Source of the DNA: a virus | Lineage: Duplodnaviria; Heunggongvirae; Uroviricota; Caudoviricetes | Reading direction: 5' to 3' (one strand) | Virus record (IMG/VR): IMGVR_UViG_3300048598_000131 | Length of the DNA: 64,000 nt | Shown: in pieces, positions 7,442-57,011 of the stretch | Numbering within the stretch: position 1 is the stretch's first letter | How the letters are laid out: every line of letters begins with the position of its first letter | Position numbers and translations under genes: made by a program | Notes under the pieces: generated by a model | Database searches by the model: none | What the model saw: only the letters and a program-made list of their open reading frames with translations | Told to the model about the DNA's origin: nothing

Positions 7442-8005
7442 ATGAATATCTCATTGGCCATGTTTGATGATTGCGATGAATCTGAACTCACCGCGATTGA
7501 AGTATCGGCAAAAGCCGAGCTTGAAACGGCTGCTACAGCCGCATGTAAGGATTGGGCGCAGAAAGGCGATTGGGGTGAAAATGGCGCCGTTGTTCATGTG
7601 CATTGGGAAGTTGTTGGTGTGGATGGAAGTACGGCGCACGAGTTGGTCGGGGAATCGGGTGATGTGGATGTTGAAATTGAGCCAGATCATGCGAGCTTAA
7701 TCAGGCGGTGCGGCGGCGCAGATCACAAGACAGAGGATGGTCGATGTGGCTCAGATCCAGCCAGCCATGACTGGACAAGCGCAGGCGAAGATGGGTGCTC
7801 GGACAATCCAGGTGTATTTGCACTCGGAGGCACCAAGATAGAATACAACACGCATTGCCGACGCTGCGGACTGCACCGAAGGATAATTAATCCAGGTGAA
7901 GCTCGGAATCGTGATGATCATGCAGTGTATGAATATCACATGTTGACCGATGACGCAATCTCTCAGCACCGTAATGAGGGCAGCATGGATAGTGATTTAG
8001 ATTAA
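7442..8005 (+). CDS. hypothetical protein (acidic, His/Cys-containing)
   Basis: The ORF-track start at 7403 is a TTG that lies inside the promoter -35 element. The in-frame ATG at 7442 is more plausible and may give a leaderless mRNA. Confidence 0.5.
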   Translation: MNISLAMFDDCDESELTAIEVSAKAELETAATAACKDWAQKGDWGENGAVVHVHWEVVGVDGSTAHELVGESGDVDVEIEPDHASLIRRCGGADHKTEDGRCGSDPASHDWTSAGEDGCSDNPGVFALGGTKIEYNTHCRRCGLHRRIINPGEARNRDDHAVYEYHMLTDDAISQHRNEGSMDSDLD

Positions 8006-8011
8006 CAGTTT

Positions 8012-8497
8012 ATGAATATTTTTTCTTGGTTCAAACGAAAGAATCCAAACAGCTTGATTCAGATCGATTATGGTAAGCTCAGCGATCGAGTGCTGAAGGA
8101 CATAGAGAGCAATTTTAGGTTTGAGCCACGCGGGTTTAATTTGAGCGATGCGGATCGAGCCTTTTTAGGCGTTGACATAAAAGTAACAGAGATCACGGCT
8201 TACTACTGCACGCCTGAGACTTCTCTATGGGAAAAGGACCGAAGATGCTATTATTTGTTTGTCGTAGATAAGAGCAGATTTACTGAGACTGTCGGAGGTC
8301 CTATCTACTATATTTCGCCTTACTACACTAGTTTAAGCAATTATCAATTTTCACAGCTGAGATTTCGAGACGCTAAGCAATTGGCGGATTTCACTGCGGC
8401 TATAACGCGCTTGCAGTTTAGGCTTAGCACGAACACAACTAATGCTCACGCTAAGCGCATTCTTAGCTGTTTTCCAGGCGTGGATTATAAGTTATAA
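8012..8497 (+). CDS. hypothetical protein, paralog family C (member 1)
   Basis: MNIFSWFKRKNPNSLIQIDYGKLSDRVLKDIESNF is similar to the start of 8504..8995. Confidence 0.55.
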   Translation: MNIFSWFKRKNPNSLIQIDYGKLSDRVLKDIESNFRFEPRGFNLSDADRAFLGVDIKVTEITAYYCTPETSLWEKDRRCYYLFVVDKSRFTETVGGPIYYISPYYTSLSNYQFSQLRFRDAKQLADFTAAITRLQFRLSTNTTNAHAKRILSCFPGVDYKL

Positions 8498-8503
8498 CTT
8501 AGC

Positions 8504-8995
8504 ATGAATATTTTAGCTCTATTCAAGCGAAAGAAGCTTAGTGTGTCACTTGAGCTTGATTACTGTAAACTCAGTAATCAAGTGATCAAGGACATGGAAG
8601 ACGTGTCCAAGTTTGAGGAGCGTGAATCGGATTTTACAGATAAATTGAAGTCATTCGCAGGTTGTAAAGCCGATTCAGATGCTATATGCCTTTTCTATTG
8701 CAATGTTAATCCGTCCATGTGGCTAAAGTATAGGTGTCCTTACTATTTGATTAGAGTAGACTACAGTTGGAATAGCGAGAGCAGCGATTTTGGATACTAC
8801 ATTGCGCCTGCGTCTCAGACCACGGCTTGCACTGAATTTACTCGGCTTCGTTTTGAGAACGAGGATCATCATAAAGCTTTTGTGACAGCTTTTGATAATG
8901 TATACTTAGCATTATCTAGCAAGCATAACAGCGCTAAGTACAGAGATATTGCAGAATGTTTTCCAGATGTAGTGCATAAAAGCTATGAGCATTAA
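8504..8995 (+). CDS. hypothetical protein, paralog family C (member 2)
   Basis: MNILALFKRKKLSVSLELDYCKLSNQVIKDMEDVS. The two genes have nearly equal lengths (163 and 161 aa). Confidence 0.55.
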   Translation: MNILALFKRKKLSVSLELDYCKLSNQVIKDMEDVSKFEERESDFTDKLKSFAGCKADSDAICLFYCNVNPSMWLKYRCPYYLIRVDYSWNSESSDFGYYIAPASQTTACTEFTRLRFENEDHHKAFVTAFDNVYLALSSKHNSAKYRDIAECFPDVVHKSYEH

Positions 8996-9326
8996 GCTGC
9001 TTGTTTATTTGTATTTAGCGGTCTCTATCATTTTTGAAATGTGTGGAGATTATTGTGTAAAGATTGCGTCTATAAGCGTAGGTAGTAAATCCAAATTTAT
9101 GTGGATTGTATCGCTCGTAGCTTATAATTTTATGCTTATCGCTTGGATGATTGCAGTAAAGTATGCCAAAGTGATTACGATTCCTGGCACTGTTTGACTT
9201 GTATGCGGTCAGATAGCCGTAATAGTCGTAGGCGTGGGCATACTGCATGAACATGTCACGCTAATACAGCTTGTAGGTCTAGGCTTAGCCGTTGTAGGTT
9301 TGGCACTATTAGGATCAACAAATTAA
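8985..9326 (+). pseudogene. SMR-family (EmrE/SugE-like) small multidrug-resistance transporter interrupted by an in-frame TGA at 9195-9197
   Basis: Residues 1-70 (LAVSIIFEMCGDYCVKIAS ... IPGTV) and the in-frame continuation after the TGA (LVCGQIAVIVVGVGILHEHVTLIQLVGLGLAVVGLALLGSTN) together form a 113-aa, 4-TM protein. Its motifs align with SMR proteins: the TM1 Glu, IP.GTAYA.W.G.GAV, and ILLLGE/LLSLGLIVAG. The stop sits in the same frame. It is a UGA followed by C. Confidence 0.5.
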
Positions 9327-9446
9327 CTTTTATTTTAATTTGATTTAACTTTGTGCCGTGCTATAGTAGCAATGATTTAAGACTAGTCCCGTTTCTTCTA
9401 CTGAGGATTGGCCTTAAAACTTTCATAATAATTAATATAACATATA

Positions 9447-9479
9447 AGCTAGCATAGTTAGAAGCTGTGCTAGCTTTTT
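9447..9479 (+). terminator. hairpin + T-run (intrinsic-terminator-like), repeat copy 1
   Basis: AGCTAGCA tagttagaagctg TGCTAGCT, then TTTT. Confidence 0.5.
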
Positions 9480-9598
9480 AGCGTACGACACGGCTTTAAT
9501 TTGACTTAGCTCTGCGTTGTGATACAGTATCATTGCTTAAGGCTAATCTCAACGCTGTTCGTTGAGGGAGTGGCCTTGAAATTACATATATCATATTT

Positions 9599-9634
9599 AA
9601 GCTAGCATGGTGTAGCAATCATGTTAGCTTTTTA
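9599..9634 (+). terminator. hairpin + T-run, repeat copy 2
   Basis: AAGCTAGCATG gtgtagcaat CATGTTAGCTT, then TTT. One G-U pair in the stem. Confidence 0.5.
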
Positions 9635-9728
9635 GTGTACGACACAAATATAATTTGACATTCACTGCGCTTGCTGTAATTTGTAATCATTAAGACTGCA
9701 AGTCCTCGTTAGTCCTAGGCGATAGTTG

Positions 9729-9762
9729 AGCTAGCATAGATCATAAGCTGTGCTAGCTTTTT
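9729..9762 (+). terminator. hairpin + T-run, repeat copy 3
   Basis: AGCTAGCA tagatcataagctg TGCTAGCT, then TTTT. Confidence 0.5.
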
Positions 9763-9848
9763 AGCGTACGCCTTAGTTTCGATTTGACATTCTGTGCACA
9801 CGTGTTACATTCATTTTACTTTTAAGTAGGCCTGCCGACTAATCCGGT

Positions 9849-9886
9849 AGCTAGCATAGTTATAAGCTGTGCTAGCTTTTTCTTTT
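9849..9886 (+). terminator. hairpin + T-run, repeat copy 4 (immediately 5' of the tRNA)
   Basis: AGCTAGCA tagttataagctg TGCTAGCT, then TTTTCTTTTG. Ends 1 nt before tRNA position 1. Confidence 0.5.
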
Positions 9887-9962
9887 GTCTCTATAGCTCA
9901 AATGGATAGAGCACGAGATTTCTAATCTTGTGATTTTGGTTCGATTCCAAATAGAGACACCA
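9887..9962 (+). tRNA. tRNA-Arg (anticodon UCU), CCA encoded
   Basis: Hand-folded cloverleaf. The acceptor stem GTCTCTA pairs with TAGAGAC. The D-arm is GCTC/GAGC. The anticodon stem CGAGA/TCTTG encloses the loop TTTCTAA, giving anticodon TCT. The T-arm is TTTGG-TTCGATT-CCAAA. ACCA is at the 3' end. Length 76 nt. Confidence 0.9.
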
Positions 9963-9965
9963 TCA

Positions 9966-10010
9966 AATTAAAAATAAATGTTGACTACTGTACAGTCTAT
10001 GCTACTGTGT
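9966..10010 (+). promoter_or_regulatory. sigma70-type promoter motif (AATTAAAAATAAATGTTGACT)
   Basis: TTGACT at 9981-9986 with the conserved upstream element. The -10 is unclear. Confidence 0.4.
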
Positions 10011-10091
10011 ATTCATCACATAGCTCTACCCTATCAGGTGTGATTAAACCCGAGCAACTACGCTCGCAAAATGAGCTTGAAAGGAAATGAA

Positions 10092-10910
10092 ATGAAAGTG
10101 CATGTGAAGCAAGACGTGGCCGCAGCAATTCGAGCTGGGATTGAACCAAGTGAACTTACAGAGATCGATTTACCGATCAGTCTTTTAACTGCGGAACAAC
10201 GCGATTATATCGCTGATCGCAGGCATTATGTTTGGCCCGTGACAAAAGGCACCCCTGAGGAGGTGATCGCGGTCCTCGATAAAGATATCGCCGAATATAA
10301 GCGTTGTCAGGCGGAAGCCGAGGCTGAAGTCAAAGTCTGGCTGAAAGAGGCTAAGCCACAGCCAAAGGGGCACAGGAGCGAAGAAGGCATTAGCTGGATG
10401 GAATATGCAGTATACTACCCAAATTGTTATTCGCAAGGTATAGCGGCTTGGGCTGATAAAGAAATGAGTGAGAAAGTGGCTAAGCGCTACGCGGAGCTTG
10501 AGGCAGAGTGCAAGAAGCTTAATGCTGAATCACGTGCAAAGGTTCAGCCGCAGATCGACCGGATTAAAGCTCAGAGGGAAGAACGGGCACGGATTGAGGC
10601 AGAGCATGAGATGTTAGCGACTAAGGCTAAAGAGGAGGAACGCCTTAAGACCGGCATTGTGCGCATTCATTTAGAGCGGGGCACGCGTAGTACTTGGGGA
10701 GAGCCCTGGATTGCTATAGTGATTCCTCAGAACGGTCGTCGCCCAGAGTACGACTTCAGCAAAGGGAAGTACGACGAGACAACAGAGGAGCTGTCGATTC
10801 CGGCCAAGCCCGGTGATGTGATTGCTTATGGCCAGAGAAATTATAAAAAGGCCAGTGACACGATACATCACGTTGTTACCTTCTTAAAAGACGGTTCTTT
10901 TAAGGAATAA
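10092..10910 (+). CDS. hypothetical protein with central Ala/Glu/Lys-rich coiled-coil segment
   Basis: The longest ORF starts at 10071. The in-frame ATG at 10092 is preceded by AAGGAAA (SD, spacer about 5). The region ...AEAEAEVKVWLKEAKPQ...KAKEEERLK reads as coiled-coil. Confidence 0.55.
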   Translation: MKVHVKQDVAAAIRAGIEPSELTEIDLPISLLTAEQRDYIADRRHYVWPVTKGTPEEVIAVLDKDIAEYKRCQAEAEAEVKVWLKEAKPQPKGHRSEEGISWMEYAVYYPNCYSQGIAAWADKEMSEKVAKRYAELEAECKKLNAESRAKVQPQIDRIKAQREERARIEAEHEMLATKAKEEERLKTGIVRIHLERGTRSTWGEPWIAIVIPQNGRRPEYDFSKGKYDETTEELSIPAKPGDVIAYGQRNYKKASDTIHHVVTFLKDGSFKE

Positions 10911-11230
10911 TGACAGCAAAAGAATTTAAATCCATTCGTGCCCAGCTCGAATTAAAACAATACGAGCTGGGTAAAAAGTTAGGCATACGCGCTTCTCGTA
11001 CATGCCGCTACGAAAATGGTATGAGTAGAATTCCAGAGGATGTAGCTACGAAGTTGCTGCACTTACAGCAATTAGATACTTATGCTAGATCACTCAATAA
11101 ATTTATTAAGTCTAAAGAGGGAAAGGCCGCTGTACGTTTAGCGCTTACGCGAACAGAAGTTGCGATTAAGCAGTTGCATGAATCGTGTGAGGCCTATAGA
11201 ACGTTTCTGGACGATGAGGTAACTATCTAA
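10910..11230 (+). CDS. XRE-family helix-turn-helix transcriptional regulator
   Basis: Contains LKQYELGKKLGIRASRTCRYENGMSRIPEDVATKLLHL, a canonical HTH_XRE pattern. The ATG overlaps the upstream stop (TAATG). Confidence 0.7.
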   Translation: MTAKEFKSIRAQLELKQYELGKKLGIRASRTCRYENGMSRIPEDVATKLLHLQQLDTYARSLNKFIKSKEGKAAVRLALTRTEVAIKQLHESCEAYRTFLDDEVTI

Positions 11231-11243
11231 TAACATTTAGTAT

Positions 11244-11552
11244 ATGCCATTCTTTAAAAAGAAAATTGATGTAAAGTCAGTAGGTAGTGCAGAGATGAAA
11301 AGCACCTTGGTATTCTTAAAGGAACGTCGAGACTCTTTGGAGTCAGAGGTGAAAGAATTACGCGTTACGCTTAAGGAAAAAGAAACTAGGTTGACTAATC
11401 TAATAAGAGTTTACAATAATTTGTCGTTGTTAGACATGGAGATTAAAGCTAAGCTAGCTAAGATCAGTGAACGGGACATAATTAAAGAGCGGGATAGAAT
11501 CAGAGAGCGACAGGCTAGACTGCATGAAGCAGGTATAACTGAAGGTTTATAA
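11244..11552 (+). CDS. hypothetical coiled-coil protein
   Basis: 102 aa with heptad-like charged repeats. Confidence 0.5.
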   Translation: MPFFKKKIDVKSVGSAEMKSTLVFLKERRDSLESEVKELRVTLKEKETRLTNLIRVYNNLSLLDMEIKAKLAKISERDIIKERDRIRERQARLHEAGITEGL

Positions 11553-11566: not shown

Positions 11567-11599
11567 AAAGCTCGTAGATTGAATCTCTACGAGCTTTTT
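11567..11599 (+). terminator. rho-independent terminator between convergent genes
   Basis: AAAGCTCGTAGA ttgaatc TCTACGAGCTTT followed by TT. A perfect 12-bp stem. Confidence 0.7.
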
Positions 11600-11608: not shown

Positions 11609-11893
11609 CTATAACCTGATTAATTGTTCGAACTCAGGTGTGAGCCGTTTGATCGTGGGCAGGTTAGTGCTTAGGACTTGGGCACAGCGGCGTAGAGACG
11701 ACACAGCTTGGTTCTCGATGCCGGAAAGAAAAGCCAATTTGCATATAGCCGTATAGGCTGCGTTTACCTCGTGCTTTAGAAGGTCTTCACATCCAAGTGC
11801 TTTGAACATTTCCACTTCTTTCGGTGAAAATTCTGGGTAAGTTTCGTCTCTCAGTTGTTGATTTTGGGCTGTTGAATTCATGTCGTCTACCAT
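11609..11893 (-). CDS. hypothetical protein (one of only 6 minus-strand genes called)
   Basis: 94-aa ORF convergent with the upstream plus-strand block. Divergent from the promoter region at 11.9 kb. Confidence 0.5.
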   Translation of the reverse strand: MVDDMNSTAQNQQLRDETYPEFSPKEVEMFKALGCEDLLKHEVNAAYTAICKLAFLSGIENQAVSSLRRCAQVLSTNLPTIKRLTPEFEQLIRL

Positions 11894-11915
11894 ATCTTAA
11901 AATGTATACAAGTCA

Positions 11916-11969
11916 AATTAAAAATAATTGTTTACATTTGAAAATCGTGTGCTACGTTATGTATACATT
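11916..11969 (+). promoter_or_regulatory. sigma70-type promoter motif (AAATTAAAAATAATTGTTTACA ... ATGTATACATTT)
   Basis: TTTACA at 11931-11936 with the conserved upstream element. The downstream ATGTATACATTT block is identical to the one after the 952 promoter. Confidence 0.4.
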
Positions 11970-12953: not shown

Positions 12954-13823
12954 ATGAAAGACACATTATTTGAACCTGTAGTCGGAATACCAAAGTCATT
13001 TGAACAGTATGCAGAGAAGTTAAAGGGCGAAGATGATTCAAAATCATGCTTTCTTACTTTAGTCTCTGGTGCGAAAGAGCCAGAAGTCTGTAGCTGGGCA
13101 CATGACATGATGAATATGTACAAAGCTTGGTTTGAGAGCCTGGGCATGAAGTGTATTGTGCTGCATACAGCGTGCCTTGATGGTAAGCCAGAGCTTATCG
13201 CACGTGCGACGTTGCTGATAGTGGGTAACTATGCTTATGGCATTGGCAAGTGTGAGACGGGCATTCATCGGTGTAGTCGCTGGACGAAATTTAAGCCGAC
13301 GGCTATGCTGTGTACATGCTTTGTCTCAGTAGAGGTTTTACCGTTTGACGCTATAAGCGTTAAAGACTACGAAGCTGAGTTATTCTATTCTGTAGGTTTC
13401 GACTTTTTGGCTGGATCGTCTACGACGATTATTACTGCGATGCGTGAAGGAGCCGAAGCGAGTGTTACACTTACACCTGCTACTGAAATTAGCGTGATCG
13501 GGGCTTGCGTTAAAAATGACATAGCTGTTCCTAAGACAGAATATAAAGAGTCGGATGTTGCTACAGTTAAGGGAGGCAACTTAGAATCGGATATTATGGT
13601 TGCTATGGTCAAGCACCTGCTTGCCGCGAGATTGAACAACGGAGCGTTTAGCATAGCGTGGGGTAACATTATTCGCAGCTATGTGTTTGCGCCGTATACG
13701 GCGATAAAGGACAGCCGTAATGGCTATGAGACGGCTAACGTGAACGGAGTAGTGAACGGCGATTTAAACGAGTTAGTTGCCTTGTGGTTTGAGCACGGTT
13801 GTCCTAATACCTGCTCAGCATAG
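12954..13823 (+). CDS. hypothetical protein
   Basis: 289-aa ORF with good coding look. No motif recognised. Confidence 0.55.
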   Translation: MKDTLFEPVVGIPKSFEQYAEKLKGEDDSKSCFLTLVSGAKEPEVCSWAHDMMNMYKAWFESLGMKCIVLHTACLDGKPELIARATLLIVGNYAYGIGKCETGIHRCSRWTKFKPTAMLCTCFVSVEVLPFDAISVKDYEAELFYSVGFDFLAGSSTTIITAMREGAEASVTLTPATEISVIGACVKNDIAVPKTEYKESDVATVKGGNLESDIMVAMVKHLLAARLNNGAFSIAWGNIIRSYVFAPYTAIKDSRNGYETANVNGVVNGDLNELVALWFEHGCPNTCSA

Positions 13824-13831: not shown

Positions 13832-13877
13832 AAATTAAAATTTAATGTTGACATTTAAATAGGATGCACTATATTAA
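13832..13877 (+). promoter_or_regulatory. sigma70-type promoter (AAATTAAAATTTAATGTTGACA ... ATATTA)
   Basis: TTGACA at 13848-13853. After a 17-bp spacer, ATATTA at 13871-13876. The predicted TSS falls at about 13883, which coincides with the ATG (possible leaderless transcript). Confidence 0.5.
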
Positions 13878-15667: not shown

Positions 15668-15711
15668 TATTTAAATTTAATGTTGACTTTCGGTACACGT
15701 GCATTATCTTA
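15668..15711 (+). promoter_or_regulatory. sigma70-type promoter motif (TTAAATTTAATGTTGACT)
   Basis: TTGACT at 15683-15688. A TATCTT-like -10 lies 16-17 bp downstream. Confidence 0.45.
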
Positions 15712-16158: not shown

Positions 16159-16159
16159 T

Positions 16160-16658
16160 GTCTAGCCCTGCTTGCCAGTTTGTTGTGGCGATGGATTGGC
16201 AAGAGCACGCATGCAGAAACATCCCAATGCTGTATGCGTGCATCCTTTCTTGGCTGAACTTGCGATGATTCAGCCAAGATAATATGACACCTGCGCGTAA
16301 TCAGGTTACTCAGTTATTCGCAGGCGTAGTTTAGCAGCGTTGCTGATGTTTAGGATTTGTACATCAGTTGATACGCGCTGACTAAGCCAGTAGTCTTACG
16401 CTGCTGGCTTCATCAATTTGCTGCGGTTTCAGCCTGTGCTCATATGCCGGTGGTCTTCCGGCAACTGAGATCGCAGCGACTATTTTGTGATAGGTCAGTA
16501 GTGTATTATGGTTAATGGTTGGAACTATTAGCTGTGTGCACGCATAGGCAGTATTGGCCTATCACGCTAATTTAGCAGGTTGGTTCGTAGAATAGGGCAC
16601 TGATTGGTGGTAGGTGCTGAAGTGGGGATGACCAACCTGCTATTAAATTTTACTGCGT
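16160..16658. other. about 500-bp ORF-free, GC-richer, hairpin-dense region (candidate structured ncRNA / cis element)
   Basis: No ORF of at least 60 aa on either strand. Multiple inverted repeats: CTTGCCA..TGGCAAG, GGCTGAA..TTCAGCC, GCCAG..CTGGC, and AGCAGGTTGGT..GACCAACCTGCT (11 bp). Confidence 0.35.
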
Positions 16659-34494: not shown

Positions 34495-34683
34495 ATATAT
34501 ATTATGTCAGCTACATCTTACTATTTGGCGCTGGGCGTAGTTGCTCTATGTAATTTTTTACTCATAGTCGTGCTTTTGTGCAATCGGCCTCGTAGCGACG
34601 AAGAAATGCTAAGACCGAATAAGCCTGCGCCTAAAGCGGATGATGCCGATTACTGCCGTGATCGTGTAGATTCTATTTGAAAT

Positions 34684-35028
34684 ATGGCCTACGTGCTATC
34701 AGATGACTACTACAATCTCAATAAGGGACAACCTATTGAGATTGTTTCATTTAAGGCATCAATAGATGAAGCTTGGGCATTATTTAATCGGAGATTGTTC
34801 AAGCTTCCAATGTCTATGCTTAGGCATAGACCTGATGTTGGAGAGAGCGTTCTTGTGCACAATAGAGATAGGATTTTGGAACGTTTACCCGTAGTAGCCG
34901 TATTAGATAGTCAGTATTTAATTAAATCTGGATTATCTGTCTATCGCGCCTACGACGTTCTGAATTATGGGCACGAATACTGGGCAGAGAAAAGCCTGCC
35001 TAGTCATTGGAAAGAATTGCTATGCTAA
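34684..35028 (+). CDS. hypothetical protein
   Basis: 114-aa ORF. Confidence 0.5.
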   Translation: MAYVLSDDYYNLNKGQPIEIVSFKASIDEAWALFNRRLFKLPMSMLRHRPDVGESVLVHNRDRILERLPVVAVLDSQYLIKSGLSVYRAYDVLNYGHEYWAEKSLPSHWKELLC

Positions 35029-36485: not shown

Positions 36486-36571
36486 TTTTGTTTTGTAAGT
36501 TGACAAATAGGCTATGAGTTGTAGGTTAAACGCTGTTAATTCCATAGTTGTTTTAGTTGTTTAATCGTGTA

Positions 36572-36600
36572 AACAGCGTACTATTTAGTACGCTGTTTTT
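36572..36600 (+). terminator. rho-independent terminator-like hairpin
   Basis: AACAGCGTAC tattta GTACGCTGTT, then TTT. Confidence 0.5.
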
Positions 36601-36604
36601 GTTA

Positions 36605-36643
36605 AAATTAAAAGTTGACATAGCGCTATTAAGCTTTTAATTT
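36605..36643 (+). promoter_or_regulatory. sigma70-type promoter (AAAATTAAAAGTTGACA ... TAATTT)
   Basis: TTGACA at 36615-36620 and TAATTT at 36638-36643 (17-bp spacer). Confidence 0.45.
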
Positions 36644-36736
36644 AATACATGTCCTTCTTTTTAAAAATCTTTTCAAAAAGGCACAAGAAGAAGCGACAGC
36701 CTTCGCTACCCACAGAATCACAGAATAGACACATAT

Positions 36737-41098: not shown

Positions 41099-43495
41099 TT
41101 GATGTTTGCGAGTAATGCCTACTATCAGTACGTTGATGCACACGGGCGCCTAATCTTTGTATCTGGCGGAAGTCTCATAGACAAAGGGGATTGGACGGCC
41201 TTGTCAGATTATGCGTACGGAAATGTAGTAGCTTACTCAGATAATCTTTATGTTGCTTTAGGGACAATTAGTGCACCTGGATCAACACCGGCGGCTTTAA
41301 CCTACGGTTACACAGATAATCCACTGTGGGCTGAGCTAACGTTAAAGATGGTGAGTGTTCCATCCACAGGTGGAACTACGGTTACACCGCCTACTACAGC
41401 TGTTAGTAGCTTAGATACGGGAGCTGTCTATCAGATTGTAAATGGCTATGGAATATCGAAGTACATATCTGGTAGTAATGTAACACTAAAGGGACCTTGG
41501 GACACTACGGTATCTTACATTGTAAATGACGCTGTAATTTACAACGGTGTTATTCTTGTGTGCGTAGTTCCTGTATCTCCTCCACAGACTTATCCTTATT
41601 TAGGCGTCTATGGCACAGGTAACTTTACTTATTGGTCTTATCTTACATTGACTAGCTACACTAGCTCGTCAGTGCTAGTAACCGGGTACACTGCTTATCA
41701 GAGCCAAGTTGTACTAGGTGGTCCTACTGGTCCAACAGGCTATACAGGCTACACAGGTTCATCTGGTGATCAGGGTTCGACGGGTTTTACCGGCTATACA
41801 GGATATACGGGTCCATTGGGATTCACAGGTTACACAGGCTATACTGGACCTTTTGGCTTGGGTGACACAGGATATACAGGATACACTGGAACTACGGGAC
41901 CTCAGGGCATACCTGGAATTCAAGGCTCAACCGGTTATACAGGTTACACAGGACCACAAGGTCAAGATTCTACAGTAACGGGTTATACGGGATTTACAGG
42001 CTACACGGGTTCTCCAGGAACTAATGGAATTCAAGGTTCAACCGGTTATACAGGGTACACCGGTCCTACTGGACCTGGAAATTTTACAGGTTACACTGGC
42101 TATACAGGCGTTTCTGGATCACAGGGATCCACAGGTTACACAGGATTTACAGGTCCACAGGGAAACCAAGGTAATCAAGGTTTAATCGGTTACACTGGAT
42201 TTACAGGATATACTGGAAGTCAAGGTGGAGTAGGCAGCACAGGCTACACTGGCTATCAAGGTCCTACAGGATACACTGGTTATACTGGTCCACAAGGTAT
42301 TCAGGGTGTAACAGGGTATACCGGCTACACAGGATATACCGGAAGAACGGGTTACACAGGGTACACCGGACCTACAGGCGTTACAGGATACACAGGGTAC
42401 ACTGGACCGTCTGGAAGTAACGGTAGTCAAGGGACTACCGGTTATACAGGTTACACTGGAAATCAAGGATCCACGGGCTATACAGGATATACTGGTCCAA
42501 CAGGAACTGCTTCGAATGTAACGGGTTACACTGGATATACCGGTCCGCAGGGATCATCCTATACGGGTTACACAGGATATACTGGTGGATTAGGGAGCAC
42601 AGGACAGACCGGTTACACCGGTTATACTGGCCCGGCAGGACTAGCATCCACTGTAACTGGATACACTGGCTATACGGGACCTTCAGGCAGCAATGGAAGT
42701 CAGGGCACTACCGGTTATACGGGATATTCAGGTTCATCAGGCACTACGGGATATACAGGCTACACCGGTCCTTCAGGAAGTAACGGTAGTCAAGGTTCAA
42801 CAGGCTACACAGGTTACACAGGACCTGCTGTAACAGGCTATACCGGTTTTACAGGTCCAGCTTCTACAGTAACAGGATATACTGGCTACACGGGATATAC
42901 CGGTAGGACAGGTTATACAGGATACACTGGTCCACAAGGACAAACAGGATATACGGGTTATACTGGTCCAACGGGTGCTGCTTCTACTATTACAGGATAC
43001 ACTGGATACACGGGCTACACAGGTTCGTCTGGAGCTGCATCTACGATTACTGGTTATACAGGTTACACTGGGCCTTCAGGTAGTAACGGAAGCCAGGGCA
43101 ACACAGGATATACGGGTTATACAGGATACGCGTCAACAGTTACGGGTTATACCGGTTACACAGGCCCACAAGGATTAGCCTCTACAATAACAGGGTATAC
43201 CGGTTATACCGGTTCTCAAGGTGGCATAGGTTCTACGGGATATACAGGTTACACAGGTTCATCTGGTAATACTGGTTCATCCGGTTCAACTGGTTACACA
43301 GGGTACACAGGATATACAGGACCACAAGGGATAGCTTCCACCATAACTGGATACACAGGATACACCGGAATATCAGGTTCAACTGGCTATACTGGCTATA
43401 CAGGTCCTCAGGGTCCAACCGGTCCAAGCGGCTCAGGCGGATCAGGCGACGTAACAGCAGCCTATGTGGCTGCGATTGCAATTGCACTAGGATAA
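41099..43495 (+). CDS. collagen-like triple-helix-repeat protein (Gly-Tyr-Thr triplets), fibre protein 1
   Basis: About 200-aa N-terminal non-repeat domain (..[16 protein letters not shown]..). Then about 600 aa of uninterrupted G-X-Y triplets, dominated by [20 protein letters not shown]. Confidence 0.75.
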
Positions 43496-43499
43496 ATCT

Positions 43500-44627
43500 A
43501 TGAATTACGACGGAGCTACTGGCTACACAGGTTATACAGGTTACACTGGCCCTTCAGGAGGACCGGCAGGACCTCGCGGAGTAGACGGTCCAACAGGTTA
43601 CACTGGCTACACAGGTCCACAAGGCGCTACAGGTCCAGGTTATACGGGGCCTCAAGGAGCCATGGGGCTAAAAGGCACTACGGGCTATACGGGCTATACT
43701 GGTGCATCTGGCTCGGACGGCAGAAGCTATACAGGTCCTCAAGGCGTCCAAGGAGGGACTGGCTATACAGGTTATACAGGATACACTGGATCAACTGGAT
43801 CAACAGGTCCAGGCTATACAGGTCCACAGGGACCAGCCGGATTAAAAGGAAGCACTGGTTACACTGGCTATACCGGCGCAGCAGGCAGAGATGGTGCTAG
43901 CTATACAGGTTACACAGGACCTCAAGGCCTAAGGGGATTTACAGGCTATACGGGTTACACTGGAGTAGGCGGCGTCACCGGTTACACAGGCTACACAGGT
44001 CCAATGGGAATTATGGGGAGTAGAGGATACACTGGCCCTCAGGGCGATACCGGCTACACCGGTTATACTGGCTATACTGGAAGTAGAGGGCTGTCCGTGA
44101 CTGGCTACACTGGCTATACAGGTCCTAGTGGCACAGTAGGCACGACAGGCTCACAAGGCACTACGGGCTATACCGGCTACACAGGTTCAGCCTCTACAGT
44201 CACTGGCTATACGGGTTACACAGGCCCGCAGGGCATAATAGGCAAGGGTGGTAGTCAAGGTCCTGTCGGTTATACTGGATACACTGGTTATACCGGCCAA
44301 TCTGGTGACATGGGTCCACGTGGATTTACAGGATATACCGGTTACACTGGTCCTAAGGGACCAGCAGGTGGTGGAATACGCGGTGTAAGCGGCGTTATTG
44401 ATTTGGACACGTCTTCTGTATCGGGCAGCTTCAGCGTAGCCGTTGATTTTAGCACATTAACGTCTGTAGTGCTTACAGTAGCACGGCCACATGGATCTTC
44501 GGTTATTTATGCCAATCTGGATAGCTCTGCCACGTATTATAGTAATGGTTCTATCGTCGTAGGCTACGATCTAAGCGCACTTCCAGCAACAGATGCCTAT
44601 CGTCTGCATTATGTGATTTTAGCTTAA
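43500..44627 (+). CDS. collagen-like triple-helix-repeat protein, fibre protein 2
   Basis: G-X-Y triplets for about 290 aa. The C-terminal roughly 85-aa non-collagen domain is [12 protein letters not shown]...YRLHYVILA. Starts 4 nt after the previous collagen-like gene. Confidence 0.75.
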
Positions 44628-48827: not shown

Positions 48828-51800
48828 ATGCCTACCATACCAGGTACAGTAGTAGCAGCAGCAATAACAACGGGTGATACCAATCTTTTATTTTCAATTG
48901 GTGATACAAATGAAATGCAGGGAGGCCATCATTCAGTAGCAGCAGATACTGATAGAGACAATATACCTAGCGCGAGACGAACAGAAGGTATGAGCTGCTG
49001 GGTACAGACGAGCCAGAAACTTTATAGGCTTGTAGGTGGTATAGACAATTCTAATTGGACTGAAGTTACCGTAGCTCCAACCGGTTATACTGGTTACACT
49101 GGTCCTCAAGGTCCTGGAGGAGAAGATGGAGGCCCAACAGGATACACAGGGTACACTGGACCTACAGGAGTTACCGGTTATACCGGTTACACTGGGCCGC
49201 AGGGAAATGCATCAACAGTTACGGGCTATACCGGTTACACTGGTTCATCAGGTAGTCAAGGCAGCACTGGATTTACTGGTTTTACCGGGTACACCGGATA
49301 TCAAGGGATTCAGGGATCAACTGGCTACACTGGATTTACAGGACCACAAGGAATACAAGGAGTTACAGGATATACTGGCTACACCGGTTATACTGGAAGA
49401 ACTGGATATACAGGATATACTGGAAATCAAGGTTCAACCGGCTACACTGGTTATACTGGTCCATCAGGCGCGCAAGGGACTACAGGGTATACCGGTTATA
49501 GCGGTCAAACAGGCTATACGGGTTACACCGGACCGCAAGGAAGTCAAGGGAGTACCGGCTATACAGGATTTACAGGACCTATCGGAGCTGCATCAACTGT
49601 AACAGGGTATACGGGATACACTGGTTATACGGGAAGAACGGGATACACCGGTTACACTGGTTCACAAGGAATTCAAGGTGCTACTGGTTATACAGGATTT
49701 ACAGGACCACAGGGAGTGCAAGGCGTAACGGGTTATACGGGATACACAGGTAGTCAGGGTGCCCAAGGCAGTGCTGGATTAGCAGGCGATACAGGATATA
49801 CCGGATATACAGGTTATACAGGACCTCAAGGAATTACAGGATACTCGGGTTCTCCAGGTCCAACAGGCTACACTGGCTATAGTGGTCAAGGCTATTTAGC
49901 CCATAGCTATTCAGCGCTTACGCTTACACTAGGCTCAGTGGCCTATGCAACAGCAGAAACTAATTTAGCTTATGCCGTAAGTGATAGAGTGCAGTTAACA
50001 TGTACCAGCGATCCTGCTGTATGGATGGCTGGATTTATTACAAATTATGACGGTGTAAATTCGTACGTAATAAATGTAGACCTGCTTAATGGTAGTGGAT
50101 CATATACAAGTTGGTCAGTAAGCTTGACAGGTAGGCTAGGAGCAACCGGTTATACAGGCTATACCGGAGCACAAGGAATTCAAGGTGCTACCGGCTACAC
50201 AGGCTATCAAGGTCCTACAGGTTATACCGGATTTACCGGTCCACAAGGTATTCAGGGTGTAACAGGTTACACAGGATATACTGGTAGAACAGGATATACG
50301 GGTTATACTGGTCCGCAAGGACAAACAGGATATACGGGTTATACTGGTCCACAAGGAAGCCAAGGTTCTACAGGTTATACAGGTTATACAGGATTTACGG
50401 GCTATACGGGTTACACGGGGCCTTCAGGCAGCAATGGAAGTCAAGGCTCAACTGGTTACACCGGGTACACAGGAGCTGCATCAACAGTTACGGGGTACAC
50501 CGGCTACACAGGTGCTGCGTCTACTGTAACAGGCTACACAGGTTATACCGGTCCTGTAGGTGCTGCATCAACTGTAACAGGGTATACAGGATACACTGGT
50601 TCTACTGGTCAAACAGGATACACAGGCTACACTGGTCGAACAGGATATACGGGCTACACTGGATCTCAGGGAATTCAAGGATTTACGGGTTATACAGGAT
50701 ACACTGGTCCAGCAGGTAGCAACGGTAGTCAAGGTAATACTGGTTACACAGGGTACACTGGCTATACAGGTCCTGTTGGTGCTCCATCAACTGTGACAGG
50801 TTATACTGGTTATACAGGATCTTCTGTAACAGGCTATACCGGATACACCGGTCCTCAAGGGCCGCAAGGACCGGGTGGAGAGAGCGGAGGCCCTACAGGA
50901 TATACAGGATATACAGGAGTAACGGGCTACACAGGGTACACAGGCTATACGGGACCTCAAGGACTAACAGGCTATGCAGGTTCAGCTGGTCCGACTGGCT
51001 ACACAGGGTATACAGGTTCAGGCTATTTGGCTTACAGCTATTCTGCGCTTACCGTCACTCTAGGATCAGTTGCTTATGCTACAGTTGAATCGGGCTTGGC
51101 TTACAGTATAGGGGATAGAGTTCAGCTTACTTATACAAGTGACTATAATATATGGATGTCAGGTACGATAACCGGATTTGATGGCGTAAATTCGTACGTG
51201 ATAAATGTGGATGCCACAAGCGGCAGTGGCTCATATATAAGTTGGTCAGTAGGTTTAGCTGGTAGAATTGGTTTTACTGGCTATACTGGACCTCAGGGAA
51301 TTCAAGGCTCTACAGGCTATACTGGTTACACAGGCAGTCAAGGCAATACCGGCTATACAGGATATACAGGACCTCAGGGTATCACAGGATACACTGGATA
51401 TACAGGTCCTGCTTCTACAGTAACAGGCTACACAGGATATACTGGTAGAACGGGATACACGGGATATACGGGTGGAACTGGTTATACCGGTTATACAGGT
51501 TACACAGGACCTGTTGGTAGCGCTTCTACGGTTACTGGCTACACAGGATTTACAGGTTATACCGGTCCGCAGGGTATTCAAGGAACTACAGGGTACACAG
51601 GGTACACCGGTTACACAGGGCCTGCTTCAACTGTTACAGGTTACACAGGTTACACTGGACGAACAGGATATACAGGTTACACAGGCCCACAGGGCACTAC
51701 TGGATATACAGGTTACACTGGACCTGCTGGATCTGCGTCTACAATTACAGGCTATACCGGTTACACTGGATATACTGGTCCTAGCGGCGTAACAGGCTAT

Positions 51801-54800
51801 ACAGGTTTTCAAGGAACTACAGGCTATACAGGTTACACAGGCTACACAGGTCCCGCTGGATTACAGGGGCCTACTGGCTATAATGGGGATCAGGGACCTA
51901 CGGGCTACACTGGTTACACCGGTTCAGGCTATTTAGCGTCAACTACTTCAACCCTTACAATTACAACCGGATCTGTAGCTTTTTCTACACTTAATAGCGG
52001 ATTAGCCTACGAAATCGGAGATAGAATACAGGTAACATCCACGAGTAGCTCTGATTTATGGATGTCTGGATATATAACAGGATTTGATGGTGTTAATCTA
52101 TACACATTTAATGCTGATACTTGCAACGGTGCAGGATCTTACAGTAGTTGGTCAGTGAGCCTAGCAGGAAAACCTGGCTCTACTGGTTATACAGGCTATA
52201 CAGGTCCACAAGGAAATCAAGGAACTATAGGATTTACTGGCTATACTGGATACACTGGAGTAACAGGTTACACAGGTTACACAGGTCCGCAGGGAAATGC
52301 ATCTACTGTAACAGGATACACAGGATATACAGGCAGAACTGGCTATACAGGTTATACCGGTCCGCAGGGAGCAACCGGTTACACCGGATTTACTGGTCCT
52401 CAAGGAATTCAAGGTGTAACTGGTTATACAGGTTATACAGGTTCACAAGGTATTACGGGCTACACAGGCTACACCGGAGCTGCGTCTACGGTTACGGGTT
52501 ATACAGGATATCAAGGAATTCAAGGTAGTACAGGATATACAGGCTACACTGGATCACAAGGCAATACGGGTTATACTGGCTATACGGGTCCTACTGGTGC
52601 AGCGTCTACTATTACAGGTTATACAGGTTTTACTGGCTATACTGGTCCACAAGGGAATCAAGGTGTCACAGGCTACACAGGATTTACAGGTCCAGCTGGT
52701 GCTGCATCAACTGTTACTGGTTACACAGGCTATACCGGTTACACAGGTCCAACAGGATTGGCTTCTACAGTAACAGGCTACACTGGCTATACAGGGAGAA
52801 CTGGCTATACAGGTTACACTGGATCAAATGGTGCTACAGGTTATACAGGCTACACAGGTTCAGCCTCTACAGTTACTGGCTATACTGGCTACACAGGATA
52901 TACTGGTCCACAGGGATTAGCCTCTACTGTTACAGGTTACACTGGCTACACAGGACCGCAAGGGAATCAAGGTGTCACAGGCTACACAGGATATACGGGT
53001 TACACTGGACCATCTGGCGCCGCATCTACTGTTACGGGCTACACTGGATACACGGGCTACACTGGTTCGCAAGGAATTCAAGGTCCTACAGGCTATACAG
53101 GATTTACAGGCCCTACTGGTTCAGCATCTACTGTTACTGGATACACAGGATATACTGGCTACACAGGATATCAAGGGGTCACAGGATATACGGGCTACAC
53201 CGGTCCTTCAAGAGGCAACAATATTGTTGTAGCCCTTCCAGCTAATGTCGGTGATTATACAGAAATAGGAAATTGGCTAAAGGCGAACGGACCACACAGT
53301 CTTATTTTAACAGCTACTTTATCAGATTTAGGCATGTCGGTGTCTCAGACATATCTGATAAATACAAGGTTTAATCTTACCTCTGGAACGTGGTATCGGC
53401 TAGTTCCGTCTAATATAAACACGCAACCAGAGATAACTTTCGACATAGATTTAAGTCAGACAAATAGCTATCTATACTTAAGAATACGAAAAACAAATGG
53501 TACATCAGCTAGTAATGTAAATATATACATACTAAACACAGGATACGCTGATGACGCTTTTACACAGACATATGGAACAGGTAGCACAACTGTTCCGACT
53601 AATAGTCTTACATGCGGCGTAGGACCTACAGGATATACGGGTTATACTGGGCCTGCTTTAAGCAGAATGTTTGATTTAGGACTGTTGCCCGCTGCTACTG
53701 CTAATTATGCACGTTATTATAGATTTGCTACGTTGCCTGTTAGCAGTGCAAGTACTTTTGATACACTGTGGTTGCACATGACTACAGGGGGCTGGATATC
53801 TGCTTCAAAAACTTATATTGATTTTAAGTGCGGTAATAGAGGCGGGTTTTACTACACATGGAATTACACAGGTTCATCGCCTAGAACAGGCAGCTATAAT
53901 AGTTTACAGGCTTACATAGAATCTACAGGAGCAGTTACGCTATACGTGACGGTAGCGGCTAATTCATACAGCTGTAGCGGAGTTTCAGTCATAAACAGCG
54001 AAGGTGCTTCAGTTGAAACTAGCTTCGTATACTTGGGAGATAATGTCACGCCTACAGGCACTCTAGCCTTTGATAGCGCAACATATTCAGTGTATGATAC
54101 TGAAGGCTCCGTGACGTCGAATATGCTGGGTGATACCCACTGGGTTCCAGGGACTGTAGGATCGCAAGGAACGTATAAATATTATAATGCTTACGGCACT
54201 GGTTCAAATAACAGTGTGTCTGTGATACAGGGGCCACATACTGAAGACATTGTGGCATGGCATGCTCCAGCGACAGGTCAGTCTACCTATGATGGTGGAT
54301 TTGATACGCCTTACATGACGATAGACAATAATAAGGCGTATAGATATACATGCTGGGTAAGTGTTGCAAATGATAACACAAATGGTGCTTATATCTATTT
54401 TGGACATAATGCTGGCTCTCTTTTAAACTTAGATGGTTCCACTCAGGTTTCTCCGAATTTTACTTATGTACCTCCTTCAGCGCTTACTTTAGGCAGATGG
54501 TACTTGATGGTTGGATATATATGGCCTAATGCCACAAGTAGAACTGCATCATCTAATCTTGGCGGTATATACGACGGAGTAACTGGTGCACAGATAGCTA
54601 ATGGAACTGATTTTAAGTGGGCATCTACGTCAGTTACTGCGTCATTAGTTACCACGGCTTTAGCGTCCACGACAGCTGTTGGAGACTTTTACTGGTGTGA
54701 ACCAGCTATAGAAGAGCTAAGCGGCAAAGAAAGACCGCTTAGTACCATACTTGGGTTAAAATCGGCTGTGAGCACGGTAGTTTCAGTTGTACTTCCTACC

Positions 54801-57011
54801 AGTAGCGTAAACAGCTATACTGAAATTGGAAATTGGTCTATTCCGAGTGGTGGACACACACTGCTAGTGACTATTACAGCGTCTTACACGGGATTTTCAA
54901 CTTCTCAGACGTATTCTATAAATACTAGCTATAACTATACAGGCGGCGTGTGGTATAGATTAGTACCGGCAGGCGTAGCCTCTTACTGTTTTGATCTGGA
55001 TATGAGCCAGACAAACAATGGGCTTTATCTTCGAATTAGAAATATATACGGAACACTAACCGCAGGTTCTGCCACGGTTTACATGCTGAACCTTGGTTTG
55101 GCAAATGATATCTTTACGCAGACATACGGCACGGGAACGACTACTGCGCCTGCCTCTAGCATAAATAGTGGTTTAGGCCCTACAGGATATACTGGCTACA
55201 CTGGACCTCAGGGAGTTATCGGCTACACCGGCTACACCGGTCCACAGGGAGTTACGGGCTACACTGGATTTACAGGACCTACGGGTGTTACGGGTTACAC
55301 TGGATACACAGGTTATACCGGTCCTCAGGGAAATGTAGGTTATCAAGGTGCGCAGGGTAATCCTGGTGCTACAGGTTATACCGGCTACACTGGCCCAACT
55401 GGAGTAACAGGTTATACAGGTTACACAGGTTACACAGGAGGAACTGGCTACACAGGTTATACAGGCTACCAGGGAGTTACGGGCTATACCGGTTACACTG
55501 GTCCATCAGGTATTACTAAGGTATCTGTTGCACTTCCAGTTAATTTAAATGATTACACAGAAATCGGTAACTGGGTTATTGGCAACGGTCCACATAGCTT
55601 ATTTATATCCATTACAGTGGCTGGGTCTGGCATATCAATATCTCAGACATACACGATAAATACCTATTACAATTATACTCTAGGCACATGGTGCAAAGTA
55701 GTACCGGCGAATATCGCAGATTATCAGTATGAAAAGTATGATTTAGACATATGTCAGACAAATAATACGCTTTATCTGCGAATTAGAAACACCTACGGGA
55801 GTTTTACCGGCTATGCCAATGTTTACATGCTAAACCTTGGTTATGCAAATGATGTTTTTACACAGACATACGGCACAGGTAATACAACAGCGCCTACGTC
55901 TGTTTTAAGCGGAGGCTTAGGTCCAACTGGTTATACAGGTTACACAGGGCCTTCAGGTAGTAACGGAAGCCAAGGCTCAACAGGTTATACCGGTTACACA
56001 GGTCCAGCCGGAAGTAATGGTAGCCAAGGAAGCACGGGTTACACAGGGTATACAGGTCCTGCTGGAATTACTGGTTCAAATGGAAGTAATGGTAGTACGG
56101 GATATACGGGATATACTGGTTATACCGGACCTGCTTCTACGGTAACAGGATACACAGGTTACACAGGATATACAGGTAGAACAGGATATACAGGTTATAC
56201 TGGCCCACAGGGAGTTACAGGATATACAGGATATACTGGTCCATCCGGCGCTGCATCTACGGTAACAGGCTACACAGGTTATACCGGTAAAGGCTACTAT
56301 GCAACGAGTGCGTCAACGCTTACGCTTACCACCGGTTCTGTGGCGTTTACGACTAGTCAGTCTAATCTGGCGTATGCTGTAGGTTCGAGAGTAAGACTTA
56401 CCTATAATAGCAGCAATTGGATGGAGGGCTATTTAACTGCTTATGATGGCGCATCCCTGTTTACTGTTAGCGTTGATAGCGTAAAAGGCAGTGGAACATA
56501 TAACGCGTGGACGTGTAACATGAGCGGTGAATACGGTGCTACTGGTTATACCGGCTACACTGGTCCTACTCCATCATCCTACGTTGCGCGCATAATTGCC
56601 GGTACAAACGTTACAATTGATCCAACTACCGGTACTGGCACTGTTACAATAAGCGTGTCGTCATCGTCTGATTTGCGCGTTAAGAAAAATATAAGACCGT
56701 TTACTGACGGCTTGAGCGTTTTGGAAAAATTACCCATAGTTCAATGGGAATTTAATGGTGCAGGAAATACAGTCGACGGCAAACACGGAATGGGTATCAT
56801 AGCCCAAGAAGTCGTCGATAAAATACCTTATTGTATCGGAACACGTAAAGGAAAACTACATCCAGATGATAAGGATGAAACTGATATATATACTGTTTGC
56901 AATGCTGATCTTGTTTGGGTTCTCGTTGTTGCTTACCAAGAGCTGTTAAAGTCTCACAGGCTGCTTGAGGAACGCGTGGCTAAGCTTGAGACTACTAGCG
57001 CTAAATATTAG
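48828..57011 (+). CDS. giant modular collagen-like tail-fibre/tail-spike protein (2727 aa) with C-terminal peptidase-S74 intramolecular-chaperone domain
   Basis: Long GYTGYTG.. collagen-like stretches alternate with repeated globular modules. Module A is about 85 aa ([19 protein letters not shown]...W..G.IT.(F/Y)DG(V/A)N.Y) in 4 copies at about nt 49890, 51021, 51927 and 56292. Module B is about 140 aa ([13 protein letters not shown]......H.L.......G.S.SQTY.INT.(F/Y)N....G.W(Y/C).(L/V)VP......LYLRIR...G......[17 protein letters not shown]) in 3 copies at about nt 53213, 54775 and 55514. A unique roughly 370-aa domain sits at about 53650-54770. The C-terminus [14 protein letters not shown]...GIIAQEV matches the SD.R.K.NI start of the endosialidase/T5-pb1-type auto-cleaving chaperone. 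Confidence 0.8.

Follow-up and report, generated by a model that had tools for sequence, protein, structure and literature searches.

The DNA considered here is a stretch of 64,000 nucleotides from a virus of the class Caudoviricetes (IMG/VR record IMGVR_UViG_3300048598_000131), referred to below in its entirety as the window. Positions 9325-9886 hold an array of four co-oriented units, designated U1 to U4, and are followed directly by a tRNA-Arg(UCU) gene at 9887-9962. The components of each unit are a sigma-70-type promoter-like site (TTGAYW, 16 nt, mostly TGnTAnnnT), a body of 30-70 nt without coding potential, a hairpin and a T-run; each unit is treated here as a candidate small-RNA gene. 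The array is A+T-rich (GC 0.39 vs ~0.43). A preliminary description of this locus had placed four promoter-plus-hairpin units between an SMR gene and the tRNA. Such units are indeed present and co-oriented, with a hairpin pattern found three times against 0.01 expected, and the upstream gene is SMR-like, PF00893 being recognized on its one non-self homolog (51% identity). The promoter-like sites are as follows.

9340..9367, + strand: U1 promoter, TTGATT (9340-9345), 16 nt, TG-n-TATAGT (9362-9367); consensus match; predicted start ~9374/9375
9501..9528, + strand: U2 promoter, TTGACT (9501-9506), 16 nt, TG-n-TACAGT (9523-9528); predicted start ~9535/9536
9655..9682, + strand: U3 promoter, TTGACA (9655-9660), 16 nt, TAATTT (9677-9682); predicted start ~9689
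9784..9811, + strand: U4 promoter, TTGACA (9784-9789), 16 nt, TG-n-TACATT (9806-9811); 10/12 matches; predicted start ~9818

The -35 to -35 period of these sites is 161, 154 and 129 bp, not the 120-150 bp first suggested. The motif AATTTGAC, which had been ascribed to every unit, is true of U2 and U3, while U1 carries AATTTGAT and U4 carries GATTTGAC. An extended -10 TG is present in the promoters of U1, U2 and U4. Counting P5, a site downstream of the tRNA, 670 bp contain five promoter-like sites, all with a 16-nt spacer, and four of the five have the extended -10 TG. The same type, TTGACW-16/17-TAnnnT with an A/T-rich upstream stretch, is also found, suitably spaced, in front of protein genes at 952, 9981, 13848, 15683 and 36615, and for this reason the array sites are taken to represent the promoter with which the phage works. 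By this consensus argument, the motif would be the phage's working promoter for the host polymerase. The units are thus more than the set of simple terminators against which they had been contrasted, since each of them carries the promoter type used before phage protein genes. All transcription starts are predicted from the promoter consensus, and the sizes of the primary transcripts, computed from the predicted start to the U-run, would be ~105 nt for U1, ~98 nt for U2, ~74 nt for U3 and ~68 nt for U4.

The protein-gene promoters have in common an upstream stretch, AAATTAAAA(A/T)TAAATG. The promoter TTGACA-16-TATATT at 13848 ends 7 nt before the ATG at 13883, and the one at 15683 ends 13 nt before the ATG at 15724. 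The corresponding two genes would be leaderless or nearly so.

The second recurring component is the hairpin with which each unit closes. It has 13-14 bp, is built on AGCTAGCA...TGCTAGCT (-16.7 to -18.6 kcal/mol), and is followed by T5 in U1-U3 and by TTTTTCTTTT in U4.

9446..9479, + strand: U1 intrinsic terminator (hairpin 9446-9476), 14-bp hairpin and T-run, -18.6 kcal/mol; then AGCGTACGAC
9599..9633, + strand: U2 intrinsic terminator (hairpin 9599-9630), diverged hairpin in which all changes preserve pairing, T5, -16.7 kcal/mol; then AGTGTACGAC
9728..9762, + strand: U3 intrinsic terminator (hairpin 9728-9759), hairpin and T5, -17.6 kcal/mol; then AGCGTACGCC
9849..9886, + strand: U4 intrinsic terminator (hairpin 9849-9877), 13-bp hairpin and UUUUUCUUUU, -17.7 kcal/mol; doubles as the tRNA 5' leader

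The pattern AGCTAGCA-N8-20-GCTAGCT has 3 matches in the 64 kb, all of them within the array, where 0.01 would be expected from shuffles. The fourth copy of the hairpin, that of U2, deviates to GTTAGCT in the 3' arm. The two arms are separated by N13 in U1 and U4, by N14 in U3, and by N15 in U2, whose 3' arm has diverged. A near-identical hairpin with N13, as described for the whole array, is therefore a property of U1 and U4 only, and the word AGCGTACGAC, said to follow every hairpin, follows only that of U1, with the variants listed above after U2 and U3 and none after U4. About ten strong intergenic terminators are found on the + strand of the window, and four of these fall within the 560 bp of the array. 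Over the four hairpins pairing is preserved in 96% of cells, and U2 shows one compensatory change from A-U to G-C. Several G-U wobbles in the helices would be A-C mismatches if read on the opposite strand, which argues that the helices are maintained as + strand RNA; the T-run is likewise on the + side only. With the loop included, the hairpins of U1 and U4 are 97% identical over 33 nt. The best-conserved block of the array (D1; 44 nt, 75-84% identity) comprises the 3' half of the hairpin, the T-run, GYGTACGAC and the next -35 box, and each of the three junctions has 25 nt between hairpin and -35. Exact copies of the post-terminator word TTTTNNNNGTACGMC number four in the window; the array contains three, and the other comes after a terminator at 11568. 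The hexamer GCTAGC is otherwise unremarkable in the window, with 22 copies found and 22 expected.

Between promoter and terminator lie the four bodies.

9375..9445, + strand: U1 body, with a 5' stem-loop at 9376-9418 (UUUAAGACUAGUCC ... GGAUUGGCCUUAAA) and an A/U-rich single-stranded linker at 9419-9445
9536..9598, + strand: U2 body, with a 5' stem-loop at 9537-9579 that is paralogous to that of U1 and includes a perfect 8-bp helix at its apex; an A/U-rich linker is next
9689..9727, + strand: U3 body, short, AUUAAGACUGCAAGUCC ... UUAGUCCUAGG; its own structure is not significant
9818..9848, + strand: U4 body, short, ACUUUUAAGUAGGCCUGCCGACUAAUCCGGU; ACUAAUC lies in the loop of a small hairpin

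Against shuffled sequences, the fold of the whole U1 unit (-31 kcal/mol) has a z of -5.0 and that of the U1 body alone a z of -2.1; the values for U2 are -6.2 and -4.1, respectively. The bodies of U1 and U2 are clear paralogues (repeats D2, D5 and D6). The base of their stem-loop is conserved, UUAAGRCUA pairing with UGGCCUURAA, and GGCCTTRAAA occurs in these two units (U1, 9411-9420; U2, 9573-9582), just as had been reported. Some words extend to all four units. TTAAG is found ~8-13 nt past the -10 in 4/4 units, near the expected start (ATTTAAGACTAGTCC, CTTAAGGCTAATCTC, TTAAGACTGCAAGTCC and CTTTTAAGTAGGCC), so that the conserved start word of the units reads (A/G)N-UUAAG; UUAAGRCU is also among the words that the bodies share. 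A second common word, CUARUCC, appears as CUAGUCC, CUAAUCU, UUAGUCC and CUAAUCC in U1 to U4, and in U3 and U4 it is placed in a 7-nt loop or a single-stranded stretch. Words resembling TTAAGRCTARTC are over-represented in the window (7 vs 1.3 expected), and 3/7 are inside the array. When the units are aligned on their promoters, the promoter spacers are found to have diverged. Because TTAAG was kept while these spacers diverged, and because the TTAAGRCTARTC-like words are over-represented, the bodies do not appear to be random filler. No ORF (open reading frame) of at least 20 aa with an ATG start and a Shine-Dalgarno sequence is present in 9325-9886, and genes for small peptides were ruled out, there being no credible ORF in any unit. 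The earlier view of the units as small non-coding RNA candidates is upheld in that they are strongly structured, lack a credible ORF and are co-oriented with the tRNA.

The array runs into the tRNA gene, beyond which lies the promoter of the next protein gene.

9887..9962, + strand: tRNA-Arg, anticodon UCU (ARAGORN, tct); Rfam RF00005 at 68 bits vs a gathering score of 29; CCA encoded
9981..10008, + strand: P5 promoter, TTGACT, 16 nt, TG-n-TACTGT; serves the next protein gene (ATG 10092, Shine-Dalgarno AGGAA)

The tRNA is a canonical cloverleaf by ARAGORN and Rfam alike, in agreement with the original assignment. The last hairpin had been thought to end 1 nt before the tRNA. Its stem in fact ends at 9877, and a 9-nt U/C run (9878-9886) reaches tRNA position 1, so that it is the terminator that abuts the tRNA. 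No -35/-10 pair could be read by eye between the U4 hairpin and the tRNA (9849-9886), and there is no terminator after the tRNA. The U4 promoter is the sole promoter placed to drive the tRNA. Given that the tRNA has no promoter of its own, it would be obtained by read-through of the U4 terminator and cleavage by RNase P. The upstream context of P5, CATCAAATTAA, repeats the sequence ahead of U1 (CAACAAATTAA, 9316-9326; repeat D9).

AGA, the codon concerned, is the commonest Arg codon of the window (27.8% overall). Its share is 32.3% in 20-64 kb vs 19.9% in 1-20 kb (Fisher p = 1.3e-4), and the genes presumed to be late are thus richer in it. It accounts for 9/17 Arg codons in three collagen-like or fibre genes, which confirms the preference noticed there at the outset, and for 29/45 in a 2727-aa protein. 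This pattern is consistent with a role of the tRNA in supplying late genes.

In our judgment, the array most likely encodes four independently transcribed paralogous small RNAs, with the tRNA made via terminator read-through and RNase P, and we hold this reading with about even confidence. Judged by sequence criteria, every unit qualifies as a non-coding gene in its own right, possessing a promoter and a Rho-independent terminator, as expected of a trans-acting, base-pairing small RNA (sRNA) of a bacterium or phage. Each would be a transcription unit by itself, in which a host sigma-70-type promoter with extended -10 initiates at (A/G)N-UUAAG and transcription stops at the 13-14 bp hairpin and its U-run. 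U1 and U2, in which a 5' stem-loop is joined to a terminator hairpin by an A/U-rich single-stranded linker, would have the layout of a classic trans-acting bacterial sRNA. U3 and U4 would be short versions, displaying the C/U-rich CUARUCC in a small loop or in a single-stranded 5' region. From these features we infer that the promoters are active, that the RNAs build up and that they work through base-pairing; the pairing proposed is, for example, between CUARUCC and GGAYUAG-like sites containing a Shine-Dalgarno sequence on host or phage mRNAs. The tRNA would derive from those U4 transcripts, and upstream ones, that read through the terminator(s), and an RNase P cut at 9886/9887 would free its 5' end. 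The U4 RNA released by this cut would share its 3' end with terminated U4 RNA, if established tRNA processing applies here, and the U4/tRNA junction would be the only place in the array at which processing is required.

The array is probably a new, uncatalogued family of phage small RNAs, albeit of a known kind and with nothing beyond known biology. Phage small RNAs are few, mostly accidental finds, and rarely understood. If real, the present one would be a clean, sequence-recognizable case of four separately promoted paralogous small RNAs in an early region of lytic type, and a template for spotting similar arrays in uncultured phages. If the proposed origin of the tRNA is true, the dose of the tRNA would be coupled to the leakiness of an sRNA terminator, and one RNA would serve both as sRNA and as tRNA leader. 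This is a prediction from a single metagenomic contig, and its practical value lies in a defined 560-bp fragment that can be synthesized and tested.

Several results weigh against the reading of the array as four sRNA genes. Conservation is highest at the junction from terminator to -35 (D1) and not in the bodies, which is the pattern expected of a regulatory cassette, and the likeness of the paralogues may stem solely from recent duplication or gene conversion. The bodies of U3 and U4 showed no significant fold relative to shuffles (z of +0.5 and +0.6). The 5-nt U-runs of U1-U3 are short for Hfq-dependent sRNAs. Among 95 translation-initiation regions of the phage, none pairs with any body better than with shuffled bodies, and no antisense match in the window is longer than ~11-14 nt. 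In the array region, no Rfam 15 family except tRNA scored above its gathering threshold. Finally, no relatives of the phage were found in INPHARED, IMG/VR, the metagenome collection or GTDB genomes, and there is accordingly no covariation or conservation between genomes to draw upon. The next-best Rfam scores, RsaD at 18 bits and rli40 at 15 bits, are far below the thresholds and concern the terminator and the A/U-rich part only.

The sequence GGCTAATC/GATTAGCC is over-represented in the window (10 vs 1.8 expected). Several copies encode Gly-Leu-Ala in collagen-like or GYTGYTG repeat genes (48828-57011 and 41099-44627), and two others, overlapping the Shine-Dalgarno sequence, are directly ahead of start codons (5299 and 15214). 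The excess of GGCTAATC as a sign of sRNA targets was rejected, as it is due in part to Gly-Leu-Ala codons and Shine-Dalgarno sites.

The phage is a singleton, known from one JGI metagenome contig of 99,354 bp. In INPHARED, neither megablast of 8000-11500 nor tblastn of a 666-aa ORF gave a match, and a distant blastn search with 9300-10080 matched only tRNA-Arg genes of unrelated phages. Pattern scans of IMG/VR with the hairpin, the post-terminator word and the tRNA returned chance matches only, and protein scans of IMG/VR with two neighbouring genes returned none. The searches recovered just two homologs of the flanking 272-aa protein, both distant (43% and 30% identity) and located on short contigs or in a different context, without the array, and a single homolog of the SMR gene, on a contig of 1.2 kb. 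A metagenome scan with GCTAGCTTTTTAGYGTACG gave 5 matches, all unrelated. The genome scan with the 3' half of the tRNA gave 0 matches, and the one with the hairpin pattern recovered at least 120 ordinary bacterial terminators and no array.

The closest architecture to that of the array is found in the multicopy tandem sRNA genes of bacteria, such as Listeria LhrC1-5; PrrF1/PrrF2 and OmrA/OmrB are further examples of such genes. Every LhrC gene is equipped with a promoter, its RNA combines a stem-loop with a single-stranded stretch and a terminator, and the CU-rich motifs of these RNAs bind to Shine-Dalgarno regions (PMC4132741). Both systems would comprise several neighbouring paralogous RNAs of ~100 nt, with a separate promoter and Rho-independent terminator for each, and short C/U-rich words (CUARUCC in the array, UCCC in LhrC) would be exposed in loops or single strands. 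However, the array is phage-encoded and beside a tRNA, and its predicted bodies are far more divergent than the near-identical LhrC copies, with which they share no sequence similarity. Clusters of short intergenic transcripts are also known from phage transcriptomics (PMC9163698).

The main rival, which we consider possible but on balance unlikely, is that the array represents a stack of PeSL-like composite terminator/promoter cassettes whose transcripts are functionless. In T4-like phages, a PeSL is a stem-loop just upstream of a sigma-70-like early promoter, whose 3' end is the Shine-Dalgarno sequence and start codon of an ORF; the elements flank ORFs, are clustered in plastic regions, and have been described as degraded or closely stacked copies (PMC4122927). 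A T4-like genome has many such copies dispersed through its hyperplastic regions, linked to indels among close relatives. Punctuation of this kind would end the long upstream early operon, restart transcription and offer recombination substrates for modular shuffling, and the short bodies would be leftovers of deleted or exchanged inserts. The array resembles these elements in having a stem-loop directly 5' of a sigma-70-like promoter, in being a well-conserved repeat clustered in a variable early region (PMC4122927, PMC2839356), and in having flanks with possible recombination footprints. Its junctions fit the PeSL definition and stacked copies are on record (PMC4122927); the best-conserved block, D1, is exactly the terminator/promoter composite, and the constant 25 nt from hairpin to -35 at all three junctions points in the same direction. 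A further composite is found at 36572-36620, and GTACGAC also occurs after the terminator at 11568-11596. Moreover, the recurrence of CAACAAATTAA, which stands before U1, as CATCAAATTAA before P5 would be expected if a block had been inserted by promoter-region recombination. On the other hand, PeSLs flank ORFs, whereas the array has neither a Shine-Dalgarno sequence nor a start codon nor an ORF after any of its four units. The ~45 tightly packed small early ORFs of the window are without such composites, the one at 36572-36620 being the only further example in 64 kb, and between the phage and T4-like phages, or any phage of INPHARED, no similarity was detected. The transcribed spacers of the array also retain shared words and structure, among them the common 5' word and the strongly folding stem-loop kept in U1 and U2. 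It should be added that the cassette reading is compatible with short RNAs being made, and denies only their function.

The two readings could also be combined. The constant terminator-promoter junctions might be PeSL-like adaptors for expression and recombination that serve interchangeable small-RNA bodies instead of ORFs, an 'RNA cassette rack' that we regard as a rather unlikely conjecture. If it were true, the phage would collect and swap riboregulators, or RNA decoys against host mRNAs or host defence, beside its tRNA. UUAAG and CUARUCC would then be a common handle for binding a protein or target, and the variable parts would confer the specificity of each RNA. Should the small-RNA genes prove real, the array would offer a test of whether PeSL-like junctions shuttle RNA genes too.

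Short promoter-proximal transcripts are known from phage lambda, in which 6S RNA runs from PR' to tR' and oop RNA is a further example. They resemble the array in that a host-type promoter is followed 70-200 nt on by an intrinsic terminator, from which an abundant short RNA would result. By analogy with lambda PR'-6S RNA-tR', or with put-like RNAs, the array might be a region of transcription attenuation or antitermination, in which a phage factor gates the tRNA and the downstream genes in time; this we hold to be doubtful. There is a terminator within 65-105 nt of each promoter, upstream of the co-oriented tRNA and genes, and at 36500-36736 a gene is preceded by a second such module, in which a promoter, a body of 70 nt, a terminator and another promoter follow one another. 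The ORF at 61956-63635 matches a Q-like antiterminator PHROG (E = 6.5e-4), but this match is weak and partial. In lambda, each of these transcripts stands by itself and is linked to antitermination by Q or to antisense control, whereas the array has four in series, and four serial promoter-terminator modules are neither needed for nor known in Q-type control. Past the tRNA, P5 provides the downstream gene with a promoter of its own. No alternative antiterminator fold is evident in the predicted structures, and no Q-binding or pause element was identified in the array.

The preliminary description had instead likened the array to the T4 tRNA region with its species 1 and 2 RNAs, and proposed a single co-transcribed, RNase-processed precursor. 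In T4, one promoter and one terminator bracket eight tRNAs plus the species 1/2 RNAs, and the precursor is ~1.75 kb (PMC2330249). According to the T4 annotation, rnaD and rnaC lie directly beside tRNA-Arg(UCU), rnaD beginning 1 nt after it; rnaC has a tRNA-like T-arm, and both RNAs have CC/CA-like 3' ends. The array, for which small non-coding RNAs are predicted, shares with rnaC/rnaD the position next to a phage tRNA-Arg(UCU) and the requirement for RNase P-type processing at a junction. The T4 RNAs, however, are downstream of the tRNA and without promoters or terminators of their own, whereas the array units are upstream and have both. No tRNA-like element was detected in 9325-9886 by ARAGORN or Rfam, and BLAST of rnaC and rnaD against the array found only words of 7-8 nt. 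Because the units have their own promoters and terminators and lack tRNA-like features, and in view of the missing sequence similarity, membership of the array in the T4 species 1/2 type was rejected, and the proposed likeness is apt in the position beside tRNA-Arg(UCU). A single long precursor of four stable RNAs and the tRNA, cut as in T4 by RNase P, RNase E or a similar enzyme, is for related reasons very unlikely: T4 has one promoter and one terminator per cluster (PMC2330249), the array one promoter-like site and one strong intrinsic terminator per unit. In its favour are the position of rnaD and rnaC in T4, the requirement for RNase P at the U4/tRNA junction, and the 5-U tracts of U1-U3, which may permit substantial read-through.

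Least probable of all, with only a slight chance in our estimation, is an element acting at the DNA level, in which the eight palindrome arms containing GCTAGC would be sites for protein binding, an origin, partition or packaging. The near-identity of the hairpins in three units, which includes the loops (as noted for U1 and U4) and exceeds what a terminator needs, would fit such an element, as would the A+T-rich character of the region. Yet the G-U wobbles and the one-sided T-run make the helices RNA- and strand-specific, GCTAGC is ordinary elsewhere in the window, cumulative GC skew has no turn at the array, and the co-orientation and fixed spacing of the hairpins with promoters would be left unexplained. 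Four other candidates were discarded: degenerate or suppressor tRNAs (ARAGORN and Rfam were negative, and there is no loop with a UCA-type anticodon), a CRISPR-repeat mimic (stems of 13-14 bp with a U-run are terminator-like), a type III antitoxin repeat (there is a promoter per unit and no toxin gene), and a restriction-site decoy (GCTAGC is not depleted elsewhere).

Two other places in the window share features with the array. On the + strand at 36500-36640, a second module consists of TTGACA-16-TAGGTT (36500), a non-coding body of ~70 nt, a terminator, TTGACA-17-TAATTT (36615) and the next gene. Its hairpin (36572-36602; AACAGCGTACT-attt-AGTACGCTGTT and T5) folds with a z of -4.2, and with its array-like architecture the module is another candidate for a small RNA or an attenuator. 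The terminator at 11568-11596 (+ strand; AAGCTCGTAGA..TCTACGAGCTT and a T-run) is followed by GCTGTACGAC, with the same post-terminator word (GTACGAC) as in U1-U3. Beside it is a lone minus-strand ORF (11609-11893, 94 aa) with its own promoter, AATTTGACT-16-TATGGT, which diverges from a + strand TTTACA-16-TACGTT (region 11609-11930). The arrangement is suggestive of a small regulator and a pair of divergent promoters.

The SMR gene upstream of the array (EmrE-like; 8985-9324, + strand) has an in-frame TGA at 9195-9197, in the context UGA-C. Its only non-self homolog (51% identity, as above) has Trp exactly at the TGA position (ITIPGTVWLVCGQ), and the 42 codons past the TGA are open and conserved. 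This TGA may be a recent nonsense mutation, a sequencing error or a site of functional read-through. Elsewhere in the window TGA is genuine but uncommon as a stop codon: among 95 genes, it ends 10 (mostly in ATGA overlaps), TAA 56 and TAG 29. Genome-wide recoding of TGA was rejected, since most TGA stops are in ATGA overlaps. The ORF at 34504-34680 (+ strand) also ends in TGA, and the ORF at 34684-35028 follows in the same frame one codon later (TTTGAAATATG); the two may be a second read-through pair or merely adjacent genes.

The gene at 12954-13823 (+ strand) encodes an RF2 homolog of 289 aa (Pfam PCRF, E = 2e-14), which has ~30% identity to bacterial RF2 over 90% of its length; no close relative was found among 5.8 billion proteins. 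In comparison with RF2 from Clostridium perfringens, the stop-codon-reading SPF is replaced by SRW, and the catalytic GGQ stretch AGGAGGQHVN by AGSSTTIITA. The product looks like a catalytically dead release-factor mimic. Finally, 500 bp at 16159-16658 are without an ORF and have no Rfam match, and contain four long inverted repeats with arms of 12-18 nt that are 82-100% complementary. This segment could correspond to a structured RNA or to an element at the DNA level, for example an origin.

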